This document shows positions 1 to 7,457 of a stretch of DNA of 15,979 bases, piece after piece. The notes below the pieces were generated by a model. It did not search any database. It had not been told where the DNA came from and was given only the letters and a program-made list of their open reading frames with translations. The position numbers and the translations under genes are program-made. Source of the stretch: a virus (taxonomy: Duplodnaviria > Heunggongvirae > Uroviricota > Caudoviricetes); IMG/VR virus record IMGVR_UViG_2548876865_000009, positions 1 to 15,979 of that record, one strand, 5' to 3'. Positions within the stretch are counted from its first letter, which is position 1. Every line of letters begins with the position of its first letter.

Positions 1-165
1 AACCAGCTACCTCGCCGTGCGCTTTCGCGTTATGGTCTGACTTTTCAGGGAAATATACTTTCAGTAAACTGTCAGTGCCGGATGCTCACCCGTGTCCGGC
101 GCACGCACTCCACCTCACCCGTGGAGAACTCCTTAATTACCAACCTTAGCTTCGTTGGTTAGCTA

Positions 166-384
166 TTAACGCGGGTATGTAATCATTCTGGCAATGGTTA
201 ATGCCGCTGCTTTTTCCAGATTGGTGATATCCTGCTCCAGAGAGGACAGATTTTCAGCCTGCTTAGCCCTGGCTTCATTGGCCCATTTCAGATTCTGCGC
301 TGCATTAATTTTCTGGCGCATCCACTCATAAAGTTCATCATCGGTATAGTCTGGCGCGGTGATGACGGGTTCTCGTTTCTGCAT
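166..384 (-). CDS. ydfC: YdfC-like small protein (72 aa), third gene of a dicB-operon-like block
   Basis: 72-aa ORF from track; sequence matches my recollection of E. coli Qin prophage YdfC; GAGGAA Shine-Dalgarno about 5 nt upstream of the ATG; same strand and order as YdfA/YdfB-like ORFs. Confidence 0.7.
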   Translation of the reverse strand: MQKREPVITAPDYTDDELYEWMRQKINAAQNLKWANEARAKQAENLSSLEQDITNLEKAAALTIARMITYPR

Positions 385-413
385 ACTGATTCCTCGCGGT
401 GCTGCTTCGCTTA

Positions 414-542
414 TCAGCCGTTAGATTTTGCCGAGCTGGAAAGTGCCTGTTTAAACTCACTGAAGCTGAGAGCTTCTTCGCCTTCGGCAAGGCCTTCGAA
501 GTATTCTTCGTAAGCCTTTTTCATGATTGTGTCGAAATCCAT
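414..542 (-). CDS. ydfB: YdfB-like small protein (42 aa), not in the ORF track
   Basis: Manually translated minus-strand ORF MDFDTIMKKAYEEYFEGLAEGEEALSFSEFKQALSSSAKSNG; ATG at 542-540 preceded by AGGTGA; stop TGA at 416-414; starts 1 nt after the upstream stop; length and position match YdfB of the Qin dicB operon. Confidence 0.6.
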   Translation of the reverse strand: MDFDTIMKKAYEEYFEGLAEGEEALSFSEFKQALSSSAKSNG

Positions 543-543
543 A

Positions 544-699
544 TCACTCACCTGAGTTTCTTTCCAGCCAGCGACGGGCACCATTTTCGGTTTTAAACGT
601 TTTGCTTTTGGTATACGTCATCGCGGTGAACGTACCGTCCTGGTTGGGGAACACGCCACATACCAGAGATTCGCTGTTGCCAAGATCGATAGTATCCAT
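544..699 (-). CDS. ydfA: YdfA-like small protein (51 aa); track ORF extends in frame to 780
   Basis: Internal Met of the 78-aa track ORF gives MDTIDLGNSESLVCGVFPNQDGTFTAMTYTKSKTFKTENGARRWLERNSGE (51 aa), matching recalled YdfA; GAGGT Shine-Dalgarno 5 nt upstream of this ATG; the longer 78-aa form cannot be excluded. Confidence 0.7.
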   Translation of the reverse strand: MDTIDLGNSESLVCGVFPNQDGTFTAMTYTKSKTFKTENGARRWLERNSGE

Positions 700-780
700 G
701 CTGACCTCATTTCCCCTTAACGCCGGGGTAGCGGAACAAAAACCTGCTGCATAGTTATTAAAGTTGAACCCTGCCGTCAT

Positions 781-975
781 GTTCTTACGCCTCGGGCTGG
801 CTACTTAACCCCTGACCACTGCCGGGTAACTCTAGGTATTGCCCTGCGTTCTGTGGGGCGGGGTGGGTTGATGGATACAATCTACAAATTAAAATTTAAT
901 TGGTCAATGTTTTTATCATTAAATTTGTAGTTAAGGGCGGTTGAATTAGTCCCAAAACGGGACTAGCATACAGTT
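781..975. promoter_or_regulatory. Divergent control region between the ydfA-like operon (minus) and higB (plus), with inverted repeats
   Basis: 9-bp inverted repeats ctacaaatt (882-890) and aatttgtag (922-930); internal palindrome aattaaa-a-tttaatt (887-901); hairpin or palindrome agtccc-aaaac-gggact (948-964) just upstream of the higB ATG. Confidence 0.45.
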
Positions 976-1278
976 ATGAAGATCATCTCAGTTAAAACAC
1001 TCAGGGATTTTTGGGCGGAGAATCCTGATGCAGAACAACCGCTAAGGGCATGGGTGGATGAGGCAGCAAAAGCTGACTGGAAAAGCCCGGCAGACATTAA
1101 GGCACAATACCGAACGGCCAGTATATTGAAAAACCGGCGCGTGGTATTCAACATAAAAGGTAATCATTACCGTTTAATTGTTTCAATTGCGTATCAGCGA
1201 GGATGGGTATTTGTTAAATTCATCGGAAACCATAAGGAATACGATGCCATTGATGCTGATACCATCGAACTGGAGTAA
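976..1278 (+). CDS. higB: HigB-family type II toxin (RelE/ParE superfamily mRNA interferase), 100 aa
   Basis: Small basic protein with the HigB-like C-terminal region (VFNIKGNHYRLIVSIAY...FIGNHKEYD); toxin-first order, followed 2 nt later by an HTH antitoxin gene. Confidence 0.8.
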   Translation: MKIISVKTLRDFWAENPDAEQPLRAWVDEAAKADWKSPADIKAQYRTASILKNRRVVFNIKGNHYRLIVSIAYQRGWVFVKFIGNHKEYDAIDADTIELE

Positions 1279-1280
1279 GC

Positions 1281-1640
1281 ATGAACATCAAACCTATTCG
1301 TACAGAGCAAGATTATGAAGCCGCGTTGCGTGCTGTTGAGCCCATGTTCGACAATGAGCCGGAAATTAACACGCCTGAGGGGGATTTCTTTGAGGTAATG
1401 TGTTTGCTAATAGAGGAATATGAAAAAAAACATTATCCCATTGAGCCACCATCCCCAATTGAAGCTATAAGATTTCGCATGGAACAGCAGGGGCTGACTG
1501 TGAAGGATTTGGAACCCGCAATTGGGAAAAAAAATCGGGTTTACGAGGTGCTGAATGGCACCAGAAGTCTTACGTTACCAATGATTCGCCGTCTTCATAA
1601 TCAATTTGGTATTCCCCTGGAAAGCTTGGTAGGGTTATAA
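1281..1640 (+). CDS. higA: HigA-family antitoxin, HTH (XRE-type) DNA-binding protein, 119 aa
   Basis: C-terminal helix-turn-helix (GTRSLTLPMIRRLHNQFGIPLESL); GGAG Shine-Dalgarno 6 nt upstream of ATG; immediately downstream of higB. Confidence 0.8.
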   Translation: MNIKPIRTEQDYEAALRAVEPMFDNEPEINTPEGDFFEVMCLLIEEYEKKHYPIEPPSPIEAIRFRMEQQGLTVKDLEPAIGKKNRVYEVLNGTRSLTLPMIRRLHNQFGIPLESLVGL

Positions 1641-1686
1641 AATCTGCTAGTCATTTGCCTGATGCTCGTTCCAGAAAAGGAACGCA

Positions 1687-2079
1687 TCAGGCAGTTTTGT
1701 TTTTCTGCCGCAGTAACTCTTCAAGTTTCCGTTTATAGAAATCGCGTTTTTGCTCCATATCTCGAATGATCTGCTCTGCGTCGCTTTGAGGTAACTCATC
1801 TAAAAGCGATATGATTTTTCGTTGTTGTTCTGTAAGTTGCGGTTGGTTGTTATTACTGGATACAGCAATCTTATCGCCGAGAGTTTCTTCTTCCATAAAG
1901 AACCAATGGACGGGATGTTGTGAGAGCTCTGCTAATTTTTCCAGTTTATCCATTCTTGGCATCACGCCTTTCAACCAACCTTGCACGGATTGGGGTTTCA
2001 CACCAAGACGTCTTCCCAGCTCTGACTGGTTTATGTTCAATTCCTGCAACACCTGCTGAAGGCGTTTTACAAAGATCAT
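1687..2079 (-). CDS. DicA-like (CI-type) HTH repressor, about 130 aa from the preferred ATG
   Basis: N-terminal HTH (LNINQSELGRRLGVKPQSVQGWLKG) and a C-terminal region resembling recalled DicA; divergent from a Cro-like gene; preferred start ATG at 2079-2077 with GAGGGG upstream (track start 2085 is GTG). Confidence 0.75.
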   Translation of the reverse strand: MIFVKRLQQVLQELNINQSELGRRLGVKPQSVQGWLKGVMPRMDKLEKLAELSQHPVHWFFMEEETLGDKIAVSSNNNQPQLTEQQRKIISLLDELPQSDAEQIIRDMEQKRDFYKRKLEELLRQKNKTA

Positions 2080-2204
2080 CACCACCCCTCGTAAACTAAT
2101 CTCGCGATCCTACAGAAAAAATTGATAAGTGGCATTACAAATAGAAGTTGAAATTTAAAATTAAATTTGCAAGTATCGGTATCATCGTAAAGTTTGGAGG
2201 AAAC
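2080..2204. promoter_or_regulatory. Divergent repressor/cro-type control region (operator and promoter region)
   Basis: 125-bp AT-rich gap between divergent HTH genes; AT-rich palindromic tract aaatttaaaattaaattt (2151-2168); TTGAAA (2148-2153) and tatcat (2180-2185) promoter-like hexamers; exact promoter not assignable by eye. Confidence 0.5.
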
Positions 2205-2477
2205 ATGCAAAGAAGTACTCAAGTGAAAATCCTGTCGATAATGAGCCAATCAGAACTAGGGCGTCGTCTTGGTAAAACACCACAAACTATAAGTGGATGG
2301 TTTAAAAAACGAGTTCCTGCAGAGGAGGTTATTCCAGCATGTGAGGCGCTTGGATGGGGAGTAACTCCGCATGAATTGCGCCCTGATAAATACCCTAACC
2401 CAACCGATGGCTTGCCTTGTGGACGTAAGAGTACAGCGAATGAATTACTGGCGGTGAACAATGAAAATCACTCCTGA
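2205..2477 (+). CDS. Cro-like / YdaS-DicC-type small HTH regulator, 90 aa
   Basis: HTH motif SQSELGRRLGKTPQTISGWF; GGAGG Shine-Dalgarno at 2196-2200 upstream of ATG 2205 (track ORF starts further upstream at 2148 with no good RBS). Confidence 0.7.
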   Translation: MQRSTQVKILSIMSQSELGRRLGKTPQTISGWFKKRVPAEEVIPACEALGWGVTPHELRPDKYPNPTDGLPCGRKSTANELLAVNNENHS

Positions 2478-2982
2478 ACAGGTTGGCGAGGCTCTGGATG
2501 CTTGGGTATGCAGACCAGGAATGACACAGGAGCAGGCGACGATATTAATCACCGAAGCATTCTGGGATCTGAAAGAGCGTCCGAACATCGATGTTCAGCG
2601 TGTCACGTTTGATGATGGCGCGGTTGATCAACGGGCGCTTGGCGTTAACCGGGTGAAGATATTCGAACGCTGGAAGGCTATCGACACCAGGGATAAGCGT
2701 GAAAAATTCACGGCGCTGATTCCGGCAATTATGGAGGCTATCCGGATTAGTGATTTCAGGTTGTACCGCGAAATTACTGACGGAAAAAGCATTACGTACA
2801 TGATCGCCGGGTTAAACAAAGAATATGGCGATGTGGTGGAGTCCGGTCTGCTTTTTGCTGATCCAGCCGTTGTGGAACGTGAGACAGACGAGCTTATAGA
2901 AAAAGCAATTGCTTTCAAGCGTGCCTATCGTCAGCAGTACCAACAAAAAGCCGGATGGAATTATGAGCCTTCTTTTTGCTGA
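2461..2982 (+). CDS. YdaT-like protein at the CII position, 173 aa
   Basis: Overlaps the upstream stop (translational coupling); loose resemblance to Rac prophage YdaT (IPAI motif region); family assignment is from memory only. Confidence 0.5.
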   Translation: MKITPEQVGEALDAWVCRPGMTQEQATILITEAFWDLKERPNIDVQRVTFDDGAVDQRALGVNRVKIFERWKAIDTRDKREKFTALIPAIMEAIRISDFRLYREITDGKSITYMIAGLNKEYGDVVESGLLFADPAVVERETDELIEKAIAFKRAYRQQYQQKAGWNYEPSFC

Positions 2983-3928
2983 ACGTCCGCTGGTTATAAA
3001 CACACAGCTGGCGATGAAGATTGGTTTAAACGAAGCCATTGTGTTGCAGCAACTGCATTACTGGTTGAGGGATACCAGTTCCGGCATGGAATGTTATGGC
3101 GTTCGCTGGATTTATAACACAACGGAACAATGGCTGGAACAGTTTCCGTTCTGGTCAGAGTCAACGTTAAAGCGCGCGTTTGCAAGTCTGAAAGCGCTGG
3201 GGCTTTTGCGTAGCGAAAAGCTCAATAAATCGAAGCGTGACATGACTAATTTTTACACAATTAACTACGATAGCGCGCTTTTAGATGATGGCAAAGCGAG
3301 CGAATCCATCGGGTCAAAATGCGCCACTCCATCAGGTCAAAATGACACGATGGAAGAGGTCAAAATGAAACGTTCCATTGGTTCAAAACGACCCAATCTC
3401 ATCGGGTCAAAATGGCCCGATGATCCTACAGAGAATACAACAGAGAATACAACAGAGAATAAAAAACTCTCTTGTCCGGACGCTTCGCAACCGGACGAGC
3501 AGACGCAGGAACAGGCGTTTTTAACCCGCCATCCTGATGCTGTTGTGTTTAGTGTGAAAAAACGCCAGTGGGGAACCCGGGAGGATTTGACGTGTGCGCA
3601 GTGGATCTGGGGGCGGGTTGTAAACCTGTACGAACAGGCTGCCAGTGACGATGGTGAGATCACGCGACCGAAAGAGCCCAACTGGACGGCGTGGGCCAAT
3701 GACGTGCGCACAATGCGGATGTTGGATGGACGAAGTCACAGACAAATTTGCGAAATGTTCAGGCGGGCACAACGGGATCCGTTCTGGATAAAAAACATCA
3801 AGAGTCCGGAAAAACTCCGTGAGAAATGGGATGAACTGGTTATTCGACTGTGGCGTGGTCCCGCGCAGCGTTGCGTGAATCATATTTCTGAACCGGATAC
3901 CGAAATTCCGCCGGGATTCAGGGGGTAA
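2963..3928 (+). CDS. Phage replication initiator / replisome organizer (lambda O-like), about 321 aa; carries the origin iterons
   Basis: N-terminus MSLLFAERPLVINTQLAMKIGLNEAIVLQQLHYWL typical of phage replisome-organizer N-domains as I recall them; iterons and AT-rich repeats inside the CDS; followed by a DnaC-like gene; track start 2909 lies inside the upstream gene, ATG 2963 preferred. Confidence 0.75.
   Translation: MSLLFAERPLVINTQLAMKIGLNEAIVLQQLHYWLRDTSSGMECYGVRWIYNTTEQWLEQFPFWSESTLKRAFASLKALGLLRSEKLNKSKRDMTNFYTINYDSALLDDGKASESIGSKCATPSGQNDTMEEVKMKRSIGSKRPNLIGSKWPDDPTENTTENTTENKKLSCPDASQPDEQTQEQAFLTRHPDAVVFSVKKRQWGTREDLTCAQWIWGRVVNLYEQAASDDGEITRPKEPNWTAWANDVRTMRMLDGRSHRQICEMFRRAQRDPFWIKNIKSPEKLREKWDELVIRLWRGPAQRCVNHISEPDTEIPPGFRG
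3309..3414 (+). repeat. Five iteron-like direct repeats (consensus about TCGGGTCAAAATG) at 23-24 bp spacing: putative origin
   Basis: Copies start at 3309, 3332, 3355, 3378 (degenerate) and 3402; located inside the O-like gene as in lambda ori. Confidence 0.7.
3428..3463 (+). repeat. Three tandem 12-bp repeats (acagagaataca) followed by an A-run; AT-rich element next to the iterons
   Basis: acagagaataca x2 plus acagagaataaa; encodes TENTTENTTENKK in the initiator. Confidence 0.7.
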
Positions 3929-3934
3929 CGTGCC

Positions 3935-4675
3935 ATGAAAAACATTACGTCAGGTGGTGTTCTGGCAAGAGTCAGCAGATTTGTGCCGCAGGATGCAATC
4001 CCTCCGTACCGTACGGTGGAGGAGTGGCGGGAATGGCAGCTTGCTGAAGGGCGTAAGCGCAGCGAGGAGGTTAATCGCCTGAATCATCAGACTCGGGTTG
4101 AAAAAATCATTAACCGCTCTGGTATCCAGCCGCTTCACCGGAAGTGTACGTTCGGTAACTACCGGGTGCAGAACGATGGGCAGCGCCATGCCCTGAGTCA
4201 GGCGAAATCCATTGCGGCAGAACTGGAAGGCGGCTGTACGAATTTTGTTTTCAGTGGCCGGCCTGGCACAGGAAAAAACCACCTGGCTGCGGCGATAGGC
4301 AATCGGCTGATGGAGAAGGGGGGCAGCGTAATTATCATCACTGTGTCTGATGTCATGAGTGTGTTGCACGACAGTTACGACAACGGCAAATCGGGTGAAA
4401 AATTTTTACAGGAGCTTTGCGGGGTGGATTTGCTGGTCCTGGATGAAATCGGCATGCAGCGGGATACGCGCAACGAGCAGGTCACGCTTAATCAGATTGT
4501 TGACCGCAGAACGGCATCGTTACTCAGTGTGGGGATGCTGACAAATCTTAACCATGCAGCGATGAATACACTTCTCGGCGAGCGGGTGATGGACCGCATG
4601 TCCATGAACGGTGGTCGCTGGGTGACGTTTAACTGGGAGAGCTGGCGTCCGAACGTCAGCCAGCACAGGAACTGA
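3935..4675 (+). CDS. DnaC/IstB-like AAA+ helicase loader (replication protein), 246 aa
   Basis: Walker [16 protein letters not shown] and Walker B LLVLDEIG; directly downstream of the initiator; GGGGG Shine-Dalgarno upstream of ATG. Confidence 0.85.
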
Positions 4676-4704
4676 GAAGTAATTTTTATCCGGAGGAAAT
4701 TTTA

Positions 4705-5421
4705 ATGGAAACCGTATTTGATGCACTGAAAGCACTGAAAAGAGCCTCGTCTCACGAGATTGCAGCCCGTGTTGAAATCAGCCGTGACGATGCTGTTACC
4801 GAACTCTGGAAACTGAAGCGCCGTGGTGAAGCGGATAACAAGGGTTCGATGTGGTGGCTGACTCAGGCTGGTGAAAGTGAACCAGTGTCACCGGTACCGA
4901 AAGTGACCGCGCAAATGCTGATTGAGGCGATTGAACAACATGGCCCACAAACGGCGGATGAACTGGCACTGATGTTCGGAATTACCTCCCGCCGGGCGAA
5001 TTCATCGCTGGCGATGGCAATCAGCAAAGGGCGTCTGATTCGCGTGAATCAGGGCGGTAAATTTCGTTACTGCATACCGGGCGCTGATTTACCGGCAGAG
5101 CCGGAAGCTGCATCCGTAGCGGAAACGGATGGTAAAGCCTTTCCTCAGCCAGCAGGAGTTGCGTTACCGGTACAGGAAGCGGCGACACAGGAAGAAATTA
5201 AAACAGATACTGTGGCGGACATTGTGCAGTCGCTGCCATCGTTTACCGAAACGAAAGCAGATGACCTGATTCTACCATCGCTGAATGTGGCTAACCGCGA
5301 GCTGCGCCGGGCGAAAAGTCATGTCCAGAAGTGGGAGCGTGTCTGTGCCGCGCTGCGGGAACTGAACAAACACAGGGATATTCTCCGGGATATTACCACC
5401 ACCAGAGAGCAGCAACAGTGA
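4705..5421 (+). CDS. Hypothetical protein, 238 aa, apparently two winged-helix-like domains plus a C-terminal helical region
   Basis: GGAGGAAA Shine-Dalgarno 7 nt upstream; long ORF; two similar wH-like segments (around residues 1-45 and 70-115); function unknown. Confidence 0.7.
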
Positions 5422-5735
5422 GTGGCTGGAAGACGTGGTGCCGGGCGGAAATCCTGATACTCCGGCAGTGTGCGGGAACAATGACGGTGGAATGCATCGG
5501 GATGCTTATTGGTCGTAGTGAGGCTGCGGTCAGAACGAAAGCGCGGGAACTGGGTATTAGTATGATGTTACGGGGTGATTATCACCAGTCAGCAAAATAT
5601 CCGCAGAGTGATATTGAGCTGGCGCGACAGCAGCATCAGCGTGGCGTGTCGAGGAGAGAAATCGCCAGAAAATTCGGAATGCCGTTGCGCACAGTGAATA
5701 ACTACGTTTATTTCGACAGGAGGGTGTCTGCGTGA
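5418..5735 (+). CDS. Hypothetical small HTH protein, about 105 aa, start uncertain
   Basis: GTG start overlapping the upstream TGA (GTGA); alternative ATG at 5481; C-terminal HTH-like motif [19 protein letters not shown]. Confidence 0.5.
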
Positions 5736-5959
5736 AAATCCTGTATCAGGATTACGGCCCGGTGGGGCAGGTGCTTATCAGCAGTACTGTAATGGAGTTC
5801 CGGAAGCATAACCGTGTGGTGGATTCTGTGCTGTTAACCTGTCCGGGGATATCGGCGAGTCGTGCAGGTGTGTTTATTATGAAGACGAAATTATATGGCA
5901 GTAAGGCGTGGATAAAGAAGGCGTATCGTGTAGCGTTGCAGGAGGTTAACAGTGAGTGA
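5732..5959 (+). CDS. Hypothetical protein, 75 aa
   Basis: GTG start overlapping the upstream stop; AGGAGGG Shine-Dalgarno at 5718-5724. Confidence 0.5.
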   Translation: MKILYQDYGPVGQVLISSTVMEFRKHNRVVDSVLLTCPGISASRAGVFIMKTKLYGSKAWIKKAYRVALQEVNSE

Positions 5960-6263
5960 AATTAAAGAAATGCCGGTAGTTCGTGACGAATATGGCTACT
6001 GGACACATCCTGAATATGAAAAATTCTGTGATGGTCGGGAGAATATTTCAACGGAAGAATTTAACGCGTGGATGGAGGCAAATAATCTTCAGTGGACTAT
6101 CTGCACTATGGATGAAGATGATTTTAACCTGGACGCAGATGGCCCTGATATTTCAGCATGGGAACCGGAACGACCAGAGGGCGATGGCTGGTTTATTGGT
6201 TCCATTCATGATACGGAAGATGGCCCGGTTTGTGTCTGGTTGCGAAATAAGGCTGAAGCATAA
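5952..6263 (+). CDS. Hypothetical acidic protein, 103 aa
   Basis: GTG start with GGAGG Shine-Dalgarno at 5941-5945; overlaps the upstream gene by 8 nt. Confidence 0.55.
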   Translation: MSEIKEMPVVRDEYGYWTHPEYEKFCDGRENISTEEFNAWMEANNLQWTICTMDEDDFNLDADGPDISAWEPERPEGDGWFIGSIHDTEDGPVCVWLRNKAEA

Positions 6264-6609
6264 AGGAGATAAACCAACTAACAACTAAATACTGAAGATT
6301 TAAATCAGAAACGATTTTTATTAAATCCTTAACCGGAGGGATTCCTGCACCCTCAGAATATCAGGAGGCCGCCCGAAAGGGCGGTAAGAAATGAAACATT
6401 ATTTAGAAAAAATTACCCACGAAAGAGCAGAACAACAGAGTTTCTGTTTTTCATTCTGTTTATAGTGTTGATGATACCGATATCCCCGCTATTACTGGTC
6501 TGGATAATTGGAAGGACATTTGAACCAGTTATTGAGCTATATACCGATGTGACATGGGAATCATTCAGCGCACTGCACAATAAAATTAATCCGTATAAGG
6601 AAAACTGAT

Positions 6610-7167
6610 ATGAGCACTATTACCAGAGAACGCGCGGAGATTAAATCATACATCACAGGCTTCCTGAGCGACTCGGCGCACGATAACAAGTCTTCAGACA
6701 GCCTGCTGGCTAATGTGTTTCGTATCGCGCTGGCATCACTGGAAGCAGAGCCGATAGCAATGGTAGTGCCTGATGAAATGGATTTGCTTACCTGCCATCT
6801 CGACGGTGTAACTAAAACATATGCTGATGGCTGGAACGCCTGCCGCGTCGCCATGCTTCAGGCCGGAAACTTTCGGGAAAATAAGAATTCGTCAACCAAC
6901 AATTTTCGGGAAATCTCGGAAACGTCAACCAGATCTCCGATAACTCCGGATGGCTGGATAAGCTGTACTGAGCGAATGCCTGAAAAGAGCCAGAACGTGC
7001 TTATTTCGATGAATATCGATAGCGAGGCAGGGCCATTAATATATTCCGCACGCTATCTCGGAGGCACGTTCCGGCGCGGAGGTATAGCAGTTAGTCCGGG
7101 TAATGATCTTAGGCAAGCAACCCACTGGATGCCGCTACCAGAACCGCCGCAGGAGGTGAATCAATGA
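6610..7167 (+). CDS. Hypothetical phage protein, DUF551-like C-terminal region, 185 aa
   Basis: AAGGAAAA Shine-Dalgarno 7 nt upstream; C-terminal GWISCTERMPEKSQNVLIS resembles the DUF551 motif as I recall it. Confidence 0.65.
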   Translation: MSTITRERAEIKSYITGFLSDSAHDNKSSDSLLANVFRIALASLEAEPIAMVVPDEMDLLTCHLDGVTKTYADGWNACRVAMLQAGNFRENKNSSTNNFREISETSTRSPITPDGWISCTERMPEKSQNVLISMNIDSEAGPLIYSARYLGGTFRRGGIAVSPGNDLRQATHWMPLPEPPQEVNQ

Positions 7168-7247
7168 CCTGGCCTGAAGCATTCACAACGGTAGGAATTG
7201 CGATGGCGGTGGCGCTGGTGGTGTATTCGATTTGCCGCTGGGGATAA
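7164..7247 (+). CDS. Putative 27-aa hydrophobic peptide (MTWPEAFTTVGIAMAVALVVYSICRWG), not in the ORF track
   Basis: ATG overlaps the upstream TGA (ATGA); GGAGGTGA Shine-Dalgarno at 7151-7158; single predicted transmembrane-like segment. Confidence 0.35.
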   Translation: MTWPEAFTTVGIAMAVALVVYSICRWG

Positions 7248-7457
7248 AAACGGTTTGCGGGAAAAGGATAGTTAAGTAGAATTGCAGCGGGTGCTTGAGG
7301 CTATCTGCCTCGGGCATGAACACCAACGGCAGATAGAGAAAAGCCCCAGTTAACATTACGCGTCCTGCAAGACGCTTAACATTAATCTGAGGCTCAATCC
7401 ATGCTGAACACATGTAGGTTAGCCTCTTACGTGCCGAAAGGCAAGGAGAAGCAGGCT

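Follow-up and report, generated by a model that had tools for sequence, protein, structure and literature searches.

The interval between cI and N is a hot spot of mosaic diversity and holds abortive-infection genes that are expressed in lysogeny, such as rexAB and bstA (PMC8585504). In the cryptic prophage CP-933P the toxin-antitoxin (TA) genes paaA2-parE2 are found between a CI-like repressor gene and the analogue of the leftward promoter and operator (PL/OL), and this pair is addictive (PMC8630535). It lies inside a CI/Cro/CII-like circuit with YdaS and YdaT and has been proposed to guard the immunity region against recombination (PMC8630535). A further relevant system is PD-lambda-2, a three-gene abortive-infection system active against lambda vir, in which component B is the toxic one and component C is needed for defence (Vassallo et al., 2022; PMC9519451). 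Here we describe a higB-higA pair in a stretch of 15,979 nucleotides (nt), positions 1-15,979 of the IMG/VR record IMGVR_UViG_2548876865_000009. This stretch, to which all coordinates refer, is called the window below; it comprises the early and late regulatory regions of a lambdoid Escherichia coli prophage. We read the pair as a self-regulated type II HigBA cassette that forms accessory cargo of a lambdoid immunity cassette, in the slot between repressor and PL, and consider this reading correct with a probability of roughly three in four.

An earlier note on this DNA had placed a HigB/HigA pair on the plus strand between a repressor gene (1687-2079, minus strand) and the ydfABC genes (166-699, minus strand), and these gene calls and coordinates hold:

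976-1278, plus strand: higB, a 100-amino acid (aa) RelE-fold toxin of the K-12 HigB (YgjN) family.
1281-1640, plus strand: higA, a 119-aa antitoxin with an N-terminal toxin-binding part and a C-terminal XRE helix-turn-helix (HTH).

HigB matches HigB_toxin (PF09907) over profile positions 1-74 of 74 (E 6e-33, 113 bits with a cut-off of 27). Its best sequence matches in the PDB are the K-12 HigB structures 5IFG_A and 5YCL_B (E 3e-7), and the alignment with K-12 HigB has NxxGN...R and HKEYD stretches in common. In HigA the HTH_3 domain covers residues 63-115, and residues 6-112 align to K-12 HigA (5IFG_B, E 2e-9). The toxin gene comes first, and its stop codon (1276-1278) is separated by only 2 nt from the higA ATG at 1281 on the same strand. 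Judged by predicted toxin domain, gene order and antitoxin HTH, the pair is thus a canonical type II HigB/HigA TA system. RefSeq labels it in the same way, as 'HigB family toxin' followed by an HTH protein or 'HigA family antitoxin', whereas NCBIfam gave no family for HigB, HigA, or the cro-like and YdaT-like proteins of the window. The dN/dS of higB is 0.03-0.07 against three homologues, and for higA dN is low (0.04-0.09) with synonymous sites saturated; both genes are under strong purifying selection.

The pair is a constant companion of the repressor and cro-like genes that flank it:

1687-2079, minus strand: prophage repressor, 130 aa, with an N-terminal HTH_3 and without a LexA-type peptidase domain.
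2205-2477, plus strand: YdaS-family cro-like gene (YdaS_toxin/HTH_3 match).

Genome counts refer to a set of 5426 complete E. coli genomes and viral counts to IMG/VR contigs. The block 870-2210, which holds OL, higBA, the repressor and the right operator (OR), is present in 148/5426 genomes, each match with at least 80% coverage, and nearly all of it is covered among the 60 matches listed. Searched by itself, higBA is found in 148 genomes at a coverage of at least 80%; the repressor with cro is likewise found in 148, with 14 more partial matches to the cro 3' end only. No genome among the 5426 has only part of the block. The same trend is seen for the viruses, where the set of 22 contigs with a HigB of 97-99% identity coincides with the set that carries the repressor. 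The cassette occurs in prophages with different flanks at different integration sites (e.g. beside potC or ompW), and in most of the 22 viral loci there is a recurrent right-hand mosaic breakpoint inside the cro-like gene, with homology ending at 2417 or 2429. Taken together, these sequence comparisons indicate that the unit acts as an 'imm' cassette that can be exchanged, with higBA as a fixed component. The pair is not an oddity of one prophage, as it is present in every copy of the immunity type found (all of the genomes and all of the contigs above, as well as a diverged Salmonella version). The earlier note had also set against itself the possibility that higBA is ancestral in the prophage family. 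This is largely what the constant linkage points to, while a repressor tree could not settle ancestry.

The cassette is present in the reference genomes of enterohaemorrhagic E. coli (EHEC) O26:H11 11368 and O103:H2 12009, and also in O111 and O45, and it is common in clinically relevant EHEC lineages. The locus is already annotated in public genomes, and our literature searches turned up no experimental study of this higBA cassette. Among the INPHARED phages there is no copy of the whole cassette, only a higA in phage D6.

The repressor had been described as DicA-like, which turned out to apply to size and architecture only. It is 22% identical to K-12 DicA and 24% to RacR, and it scores 49.5 bits against the NCBIfam DicA model PRK09706, for which the cut-off is 101. 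Among phage proteins it is closest to the short CI proteins of Gifsy-1/2 and SPN3UB (32-40% identity), and RefSeq relatives are annotated identically. The layout is that of DicA, i.e. a short (~130 aa) HTH repressor that diverges from a cro-like gene and lies upstream of a ydfABC/dicB-type operon. By these comparisons the repressor has a DicA/Gifsy-like architecture but falls outside the DicA sequence family. The gene order given for K-12 Qin in the earlier note was correct; between the dicA stop codon and ydfA there are 166 bp and no TA genes, and higBA is absent from Qin. Qin (dicA-ydfABC-dicF-dicB) and the window both have a repressor followed by ydfA-ydfB-ydfC on one strand, and ydfABC is 96.5% identical between the two. 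This identity holds over window positions 1-737 only, and homology ends 38 bp upstream of ydfA. The window therefore has a distinct immunity type and not Qin plus an insertion. A recent insertion of higBA into a Qin-type region was considered and is ruled out, as the repressor, OR, OL and leader all differ from those of Qin.

Two candidate elements upstream of higB suggest that the pair is regulated by its own antitoxin:

941-969, plus strand: predicted promoter PhigB, with -35 TTGAAT at 941-946, a 17-nt spacer and -10 TAGCAT at 964-969.
947-965: candidate HigA operator, a perfect palindrome TAGTCCC-AAAAC-GGGACTA (7+5+7) that forms the PhigB spacer.

Within 931-975 and the start codon, the sequence reads TTGAAT-TAGTCCCAAAACGGGAC-TAGCAT-ACAGTT-ATG. 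As the higB ATG comes 6 nt past the -10 and no Shine-Dalgarno sequence is present, the higBA mRNA is probably leaderless or nearly so. The same geometry (-35, palindromic spacer, TAnnnT, 6-7 nt, ATG) recurs upstream of higB in a Salmonella prophage (L065) and on a Klebsiella chromosome (L070). We compared 18 distinct E. coli variants of the cassette, and the TA..AT of the -10 is unchanged in all of them. The GTCCC/GGGAC core of the palindrome is intact except for one change in 1/18 variants. A palindrome of the form (A/T)AGTCCC-N5-GGGACT(A/T) lies upstream of higB homologues in four unrelated contexts, the window included. It occurs once in the window, at 947-965, once in the Salmonella prophage, twice in a P1-like phage-plasmid (31 bp apart) and twice at a Klebsiella chromosomal higBA locus between metabolic genes (29 bp apart). 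Because it is kept upstream of higB homologues in such unrelated contexts, 947-965 is likely the HigA operator, and 941-969 is likely PhigB.

The sites that may be used by the repressor are found next to this region and on the other side of the repressor gene:

879-907, minus strand: PL-type promoter found by the promoter scan, with -35 TTGACC at 907-902, a 17-nt spacer and -10 TAGATT at 884-879.
882-930: OL, candidate repressor operators with half-sites CTACAAAT at 882-889 (plus) and 930-923 (minus).
2106-2172: OR, candidate operators between the repressor and cro-like genes, with half-sites at 2110-2117, 2135-2142 and 2172-2165.

The first OL site (OL1, ~882-904) overlaps the -10 and spacer of PL, and the second (OL2, ~913-930) lies upstream of its -35. 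Two inverted repeats run through OL, one of 12 nt (882-893/919-930) and one of 10 nt (884-893/895-904), and OL is directly similar to 2142-2172 in OR, which also has an AT-rich palindrome at 2151-2168. The hexamers and spacing of PL are kept in Salmonella L065 (TTGACT/TAGATT) and in Sodalis L062 (TTGACT/TAGAGT), so that the window and both relatives have a common layout, in repressor orientation, of a CTACAAAT-type site, -35 TTGAC(C/T), 17 nt and -10 TAGA(T/G)T. The OR region can likewise be aligned with those of Salmonella and Sodalis. Among the 18 variants 883-899 is invariant and 918-929 has rare changes only, and the OR core 2106-2169 is almost invariant with varying flanks. Position 2170 is C in the window and T in all 25 other cassette copies examined, which changes an OR half-site from TTACAAAT to TTGCAAAT; it is possible that this is an operator variant.

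The region 781-975 had been described as dense with inverted repeats that could serve as operators for HigA, the repressor or both. The description fits ~879-965, with the 12-nt and 10-nt repeats and the 7+5+7 palindrome, but not 781-870, which has no such repeats. Candidate sites for both proteins are indeed present, not as shared operators but as two adjacent sets with a single HigA-type palindrome. The repressor sites (879-930) and the HigA site (947-965) thus appear to be separate, and motif searches of the window gave no evidence that either protein uses the sites of the other. We also considered that HigA might be a second immunity repressor with sites at OR or PL; this is ruled out, since its palindrome occurs once only and HigA is not similar to the repressor.

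The sequence to the left of the cassette has a different history:

700-870, minus strand: leader between PL and ydfA, transcribed and outside the immunity cassette.
166-384, minus strand: ydfC.
414-542, minus strand: ydfB.
544-699, minus strand: ydfA/DUF1391; these three are the first genes of the leftward early (dicB-type) operon.

About 90-110 nt from position 781 match 3434/5426 E. coli genomes, where they stand next to unrelated repressors, and 712-870 is common to K-12 Rac, an EDL933 prophage and thousands of others. The leader is also found downstream of PL in Sodalis. On this evidence 781-870 is best described as a common ydfA-operon leader and not as an operator region. An in-frame ATG at 780, preceded by GAGG, would lengthen YdfA from 51 to 78 aa. 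The ydfA gene was assigned by its DUF1391 match and ydfABC by comparison with L001, a near-identical locus annotated in RefSeq; in L001 and in L004, which is likewise near-identical, dicB is found further to the left.

At the other end of the cassette, a hairpin is found between the convergent higA and repressor genes:

1655-1704, plus strand: candidate intrinsic terminator for higBA, made up of a hairpin (1655-1694) and the tail UUUUGUUUUU.

The hairpin was missed by the terminator scan because of an internal bulge, and folding was used instead. It gave -24.8 kcal/mol (z -3.6) for the plus strand and -25.2 kcal/mol (z -6.0) for the minus strand. As UUUUGUUUUU directly follows the hairpin on the plus strand, we read the element as an intrinsic terminator for higBA. 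The hairpin extends over the repressor stop codon. In the Salmonella and Sodalis relatives, including those without higBA, the inner stem likewise follows the repressor stop. A scan of 1-2500 against Rfam at gathering thresholds gave no match, and hence no known RNA element at the higBA locus.

Put together, these elements suggest the following scheme. The repressor gene (minus strand) and the cro-like gene diverge from OR, and PL (minus strand) with OL, ~1.1 kb downstream of the repressor start, would drive ydfABC and the dicB-type operon. The higBA cassette of ~725 bp occupies the space between OL and the 3' hairpin of the repressor gene and points towards the latter; its predicted promoter (941-969) is back to back with PL, and it would end in a terminator of its own (1655-1704). 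From what is known of the family, a HigA dimer would bind the palindrome 947-965 in the promoter spacer and repress higBA, and HigA would neutralise HigB, a ribosome-dependent mRNA endonuclease. If the supply of HigA stops, the more stable HigB would arrest translation. This could happen when the cassette is excised or is lost to recombination with a heteroimmune phage, or when an infecting phage shuts off the host. The benefit is most likely addiction, by which the prophage and its immunity cassette would be stabilised, and abortive-infection defence is nearly as likely; both fit the data, and the two are not separable computationally.

Several points weigh against this reading. Toxicity, neutralisation, DNA binding and transcription are predictions from sequence. 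Common descent alone would produce perfect linkage over 1.3 kb, and such linkage does not prove addiction. PhigB has 8/12 consensus positions, which is under the threshold of the promoter scan, so that the scan did not report it, and the region 931-975 is rather variable, with 21/45 positions differing among the variants. The scan gave a plus-strand promoter candidate at 868-895 that overlaps PL and OL, and this could be the real or an extra higB promoter and couple higBA to the prophage repressor. Furthermore, 5/12 window matches of the half-site motif YTRCARAW fall within OL and OR (~110 bp), but this count is not independent, since the very sequences that were counted had served to derive the motif, in a region that is AT-rich and of low complexity. 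Independent support for the OL and OR sites comes from their conservation in Salmonella and Sodalis and from their near-invariance among the 18 variants, as compared with their varying neighbours. Finally, the likeness to PD-lambda-2 considered below is partial, as B is toxic and C is needed in that system.

The scan candidate at 868-895 also bears on a different view of the locus, in which the repressor co-regulates higBA, or HigA co-regulates PL, which would tie expression of the TA pair to the lysis-lysogeny switch. PL and PhigB stand back to back, and 33 bp separate their -35 elements. The chromosomal and P1-like loci have two palindromes 29-31 bp apart, whereas both prophage versions have only the proximal one, and at the position of the distal operator they have the OL2 half-site (913-930), with a 16-bp spacing that is identical in E. 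coli and Salmonella. Such wiring seems improbable all the same, since no HigA-type palindrome is found in PL, OR or anywhere in the window besides 947-965, no repressor half-site falls within PhigB according to the motif search, and the compaction of two divergent promoters accounts for the layout without cross-talk. A more specific form of the idea, which we regard as an unlikely one, is that the distal HigA operator has been replaced by OL2 of the repressor, which would wire higBA expression and HigB release to the lysogeny switch. If this were true, PhigB activity would change whenever the repressor is lost or inactivated, be it by induction, heteroimmune recombination or superinfection, and the TA pair would be a sensor protecting this immunity type. 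It would also explain why higBA is never found apart from the repressor and why the OL2-palindrome spacing of 16 bp is the same in E. coli and Salmonella.

For the self-regulated cargo cassette that we favour, relatives of the repressor are informative about the slot. Homologues with 70-75% identity are found in Salmonella and Sodalis. One Salmonella lineage (L065; repressor 74%, HigB 79%) has the same convergent layout of repressor, higA and higB followed by PL/OL, whereas other Salmonella lineages with 71-72% identical repressors have a PaaA2-like gene or a 424-aa PLD-like gene right after the repressor. The PaaA2-like antitoxin gene (L058/L059, 4454-4645) has no toxin gene called beside it. 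The 424-aa protein (L060/L061, 4506-5780) is a PLDc_2 protein, and a PIN/PhdYeFM (VapBC-type) pair follows further along, at 7680-8353. In Sodalis (L062) a spacer of ~200 bp precedes OL/PL, and neither a TA gene nor any other recognised cargo gene is called in it. The higA-repressor spacer of L065 (~4400-4440) has a tandem repeat of GAAGACCC, ~4x, that is absent from the E. coli cassette. In a neighbour-joining tree of the repressors the Salmonella carrier of higBA groups with Salmonella repressors having other cargo. The window HigB is 87-90% identical to the copies on P1-like phage-plasmids and 79% to the Salmonella prophage copy, which hints at cassette exchange. Whether there was a single capture followed by replacement or repeated exchange, the slot is in either case a cargo hot spot. 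The locus has what a lambdoid immunity region with cargo consists of, i.e. divergent repressor and cro genes with OR, OL at the leftward promoter and accessory genes in between.

The same slot is also used by another HigBA pair. A tblastn search of phage genomes found higB (95 aa, 42%) and higA (139 aa, 41%) in H-19B, many Shiga toxin (Stx) 1a-converting phages and a few others, 39 records in total. The gene map of the pair was examined in H-19B only (L073, AF034975.3), where higB (3501-3788) and higA (3785-4204) follow immediately after cI in the same orientation, within the cI-N interval. The Stx1a phage records match at corresponding coordinates, and the match in ST2-8624 is annotated as immunity region. 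Upstream of the H-19B pair there is a TTCCC-N5-GGGAA palindrome and a TATAAT box. The H-19B-type higBA, seen likewise in 22 records of Stx1a-converting and other phages, is unannotated, and most GenBank records have no feature there. As this is an independent higBA pair in the same slot, HigBA between repressor and PL is a recurring arrangement.

This recurrence argues against higBA being a selfish hitch-hiker that persists by addiction or tight linkage with no gain to prophage or host, its position reflecting insertion tolerance. Close homologues (70-90% identity) are certainly scattered over many Enterobacterales, where they occur on chromosomes, in prophages and on conjugative and P1-like plasmids, and the closer relationship of HigB to the plasmid copies suggests cassette exchange. 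Against this stand the strong purifying selection on both genes and the retention of the pair in all 148 genomes of the immunity type, across different prophage backbones, and we regard a passenger of this kind as improbable. More distant HigB homologues in IMG/VR (L029-L034, 37-40% identity) occur in unrelated contexts and are uninformative on immunity regions; the two that were inspected (L029 and L031) resemble Bacteroidota-type phage contigs, one of them with the gene beside tail genes.

Some of the same evidence can be read in favour of abortive-infection defence as the primary role, where an infecting phage would free HigB by shutting off transcription or by degrading HigA, and translation would halt in a manner comparable to rexAB or bstA. 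The pair lies in the hot spot that is also used by rexAB and bstA, other cargo of a defence type (e.g. the PLD-like protein) accompanies related repressors at this place, and higBA is found in the same slot of H-19B and the Stx1a phages. HigB matches the profile of PD-lambda-2 component A (PADLOC PD-Lambda-2_A, PDLC03979) with E 1.3e-40 over positions 1-96 of 97. HigA matches PD-Lambda-2_B with E 1e-42 over positions 1-119 of a 402-position profile, i.e. only its HigA-like N-terminal part. The peptidase domain of B is absent from the window HigA, and C (P4-antitoxin-related), which is required for defence, is absent as well, the next gene after higA being the convergent repressor. By these profile matches the locus is not a member of PD-lambda-2, and in our literature searches we met with no report of phage defence by a two-gene HigBA of this family. 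P1-like phage D6 (L006, MF356679.1, 3001-3360) carries an orphan higA beside an unrelated RelE/HigA pair, and P1-like phage-plasmids (L067-L069, 4001-4667) carry a complete higBA at the same site. The D6 protein (orf72), which shares 94% identity with the HigA of the window, could neutralise a toxin of this kind. The gene may be an antitoxin kept as counter-defence, or it may be simply a remnant of cassette replacement, given the full higBA of the plasmids. A primary role in defence is therefore a tentative alternative, less probable than the cargo reading and clearly ahead of the cross-regulation and hitch-hiker views.

Over its whole length the window has the order ydfC-ydfB-ydfA (minus strand), higBA, repressor (minus strand), YdaS/Cro-like gene, YdaT/CII-like gene and replication genes, followed by DUF1627, hok/sok, DUF968, RusA, Q, a DNA methylase gene, three tRNAs, the small RNAs STnc100 and AgvB, a NanS-type esterase and a holin. 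The hok/sok genes form a second TA locus, of type I, with a sok RNA at 7289-7463 (Rfam RF01794, 113 bits) overlapping a Hok/Gef-family open reading frame at 7401-7613. In the corresponding nin region, related prophages have RelE/ParD or RelE/HigA pairs (L001 13912-14424, L004 25061-25623, L072 28332-28894). The region 12238-14958, after the Q antiterminator and DNA methylase genes, has the three tRNAs (Ile, Arg and Arg by annotation of the related L004 and L072), STnc100 (12597-12805), AgvB (12806-12865, minus strand) and then the 697-aa NanS-type sialate esterase. It resembles the late region of Stx phages, and no stx genes are present between the tRNAs and the esterase.

A TA pair in the immunity region had been suggested to act in prophage stabilisation or superinfection exclusion. 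Such roles are reasonable, and a TA or defence gene at this position follows an established pattern (PMC8630535, PMC8585504). The locus is an ordinary, well-conserved example of this known pattern, and it adds one more well-documented case of the repressor-to-PL interval as a hot spot for addiction and defence genes expressed in lysogeny. Its compact map, with separate repressor and HigA operators and back-to-back promoters in ~90 bp, makes it convenient for the question of addiction versus abortive infection in a two-gene HigBA, and the cI-N pair of H-19B is a useful annotation correction for a classic Stx1 phage.

Compared with K-12 HigB/HigA (YgjN/YgjM; 5IFG, 5YCL, 6KML), the pair has the same PF09907 toxin, toxin-first order, antitoxin architecture and palindromes in the promoter region. 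The similarity is distant (E 1e-7 to 1e-9), however, the K-12 pair is chromosomal and not in a prophage, and its promoter palindrome is CCGTTGCCA-N3-TGGCAACGG as opposed to AGTCCC-N5-GGGACT in the window. Lambda rexAB and Salmonella BTP1 bstA share the repressor-to-PL/N slot, but they encode unrelated proteins, are not TA pairs and are transcribed with cI. The H-19B pair has the same protein families, the same lambdoid immunity slot and an upstream palindrome of its own, and differs in being on the cI strand, next to a LexA-type CI of 234 aa, and in its HigA of 139 aa. The paaR2-paaA2-parE2 locus of CP-933P is likewise a type II TA system in the repressor-PL slot of a YdaS/YdaT lambdoid prophage. 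There the toxin is of the ParE type, the TA genes are co-transcribed with and regulated by PaaR2, and the antitoxin has no DNA-binding domain, whereas the pair in the window is convergent to the repressor gene and apparently regulated by HigA itself.

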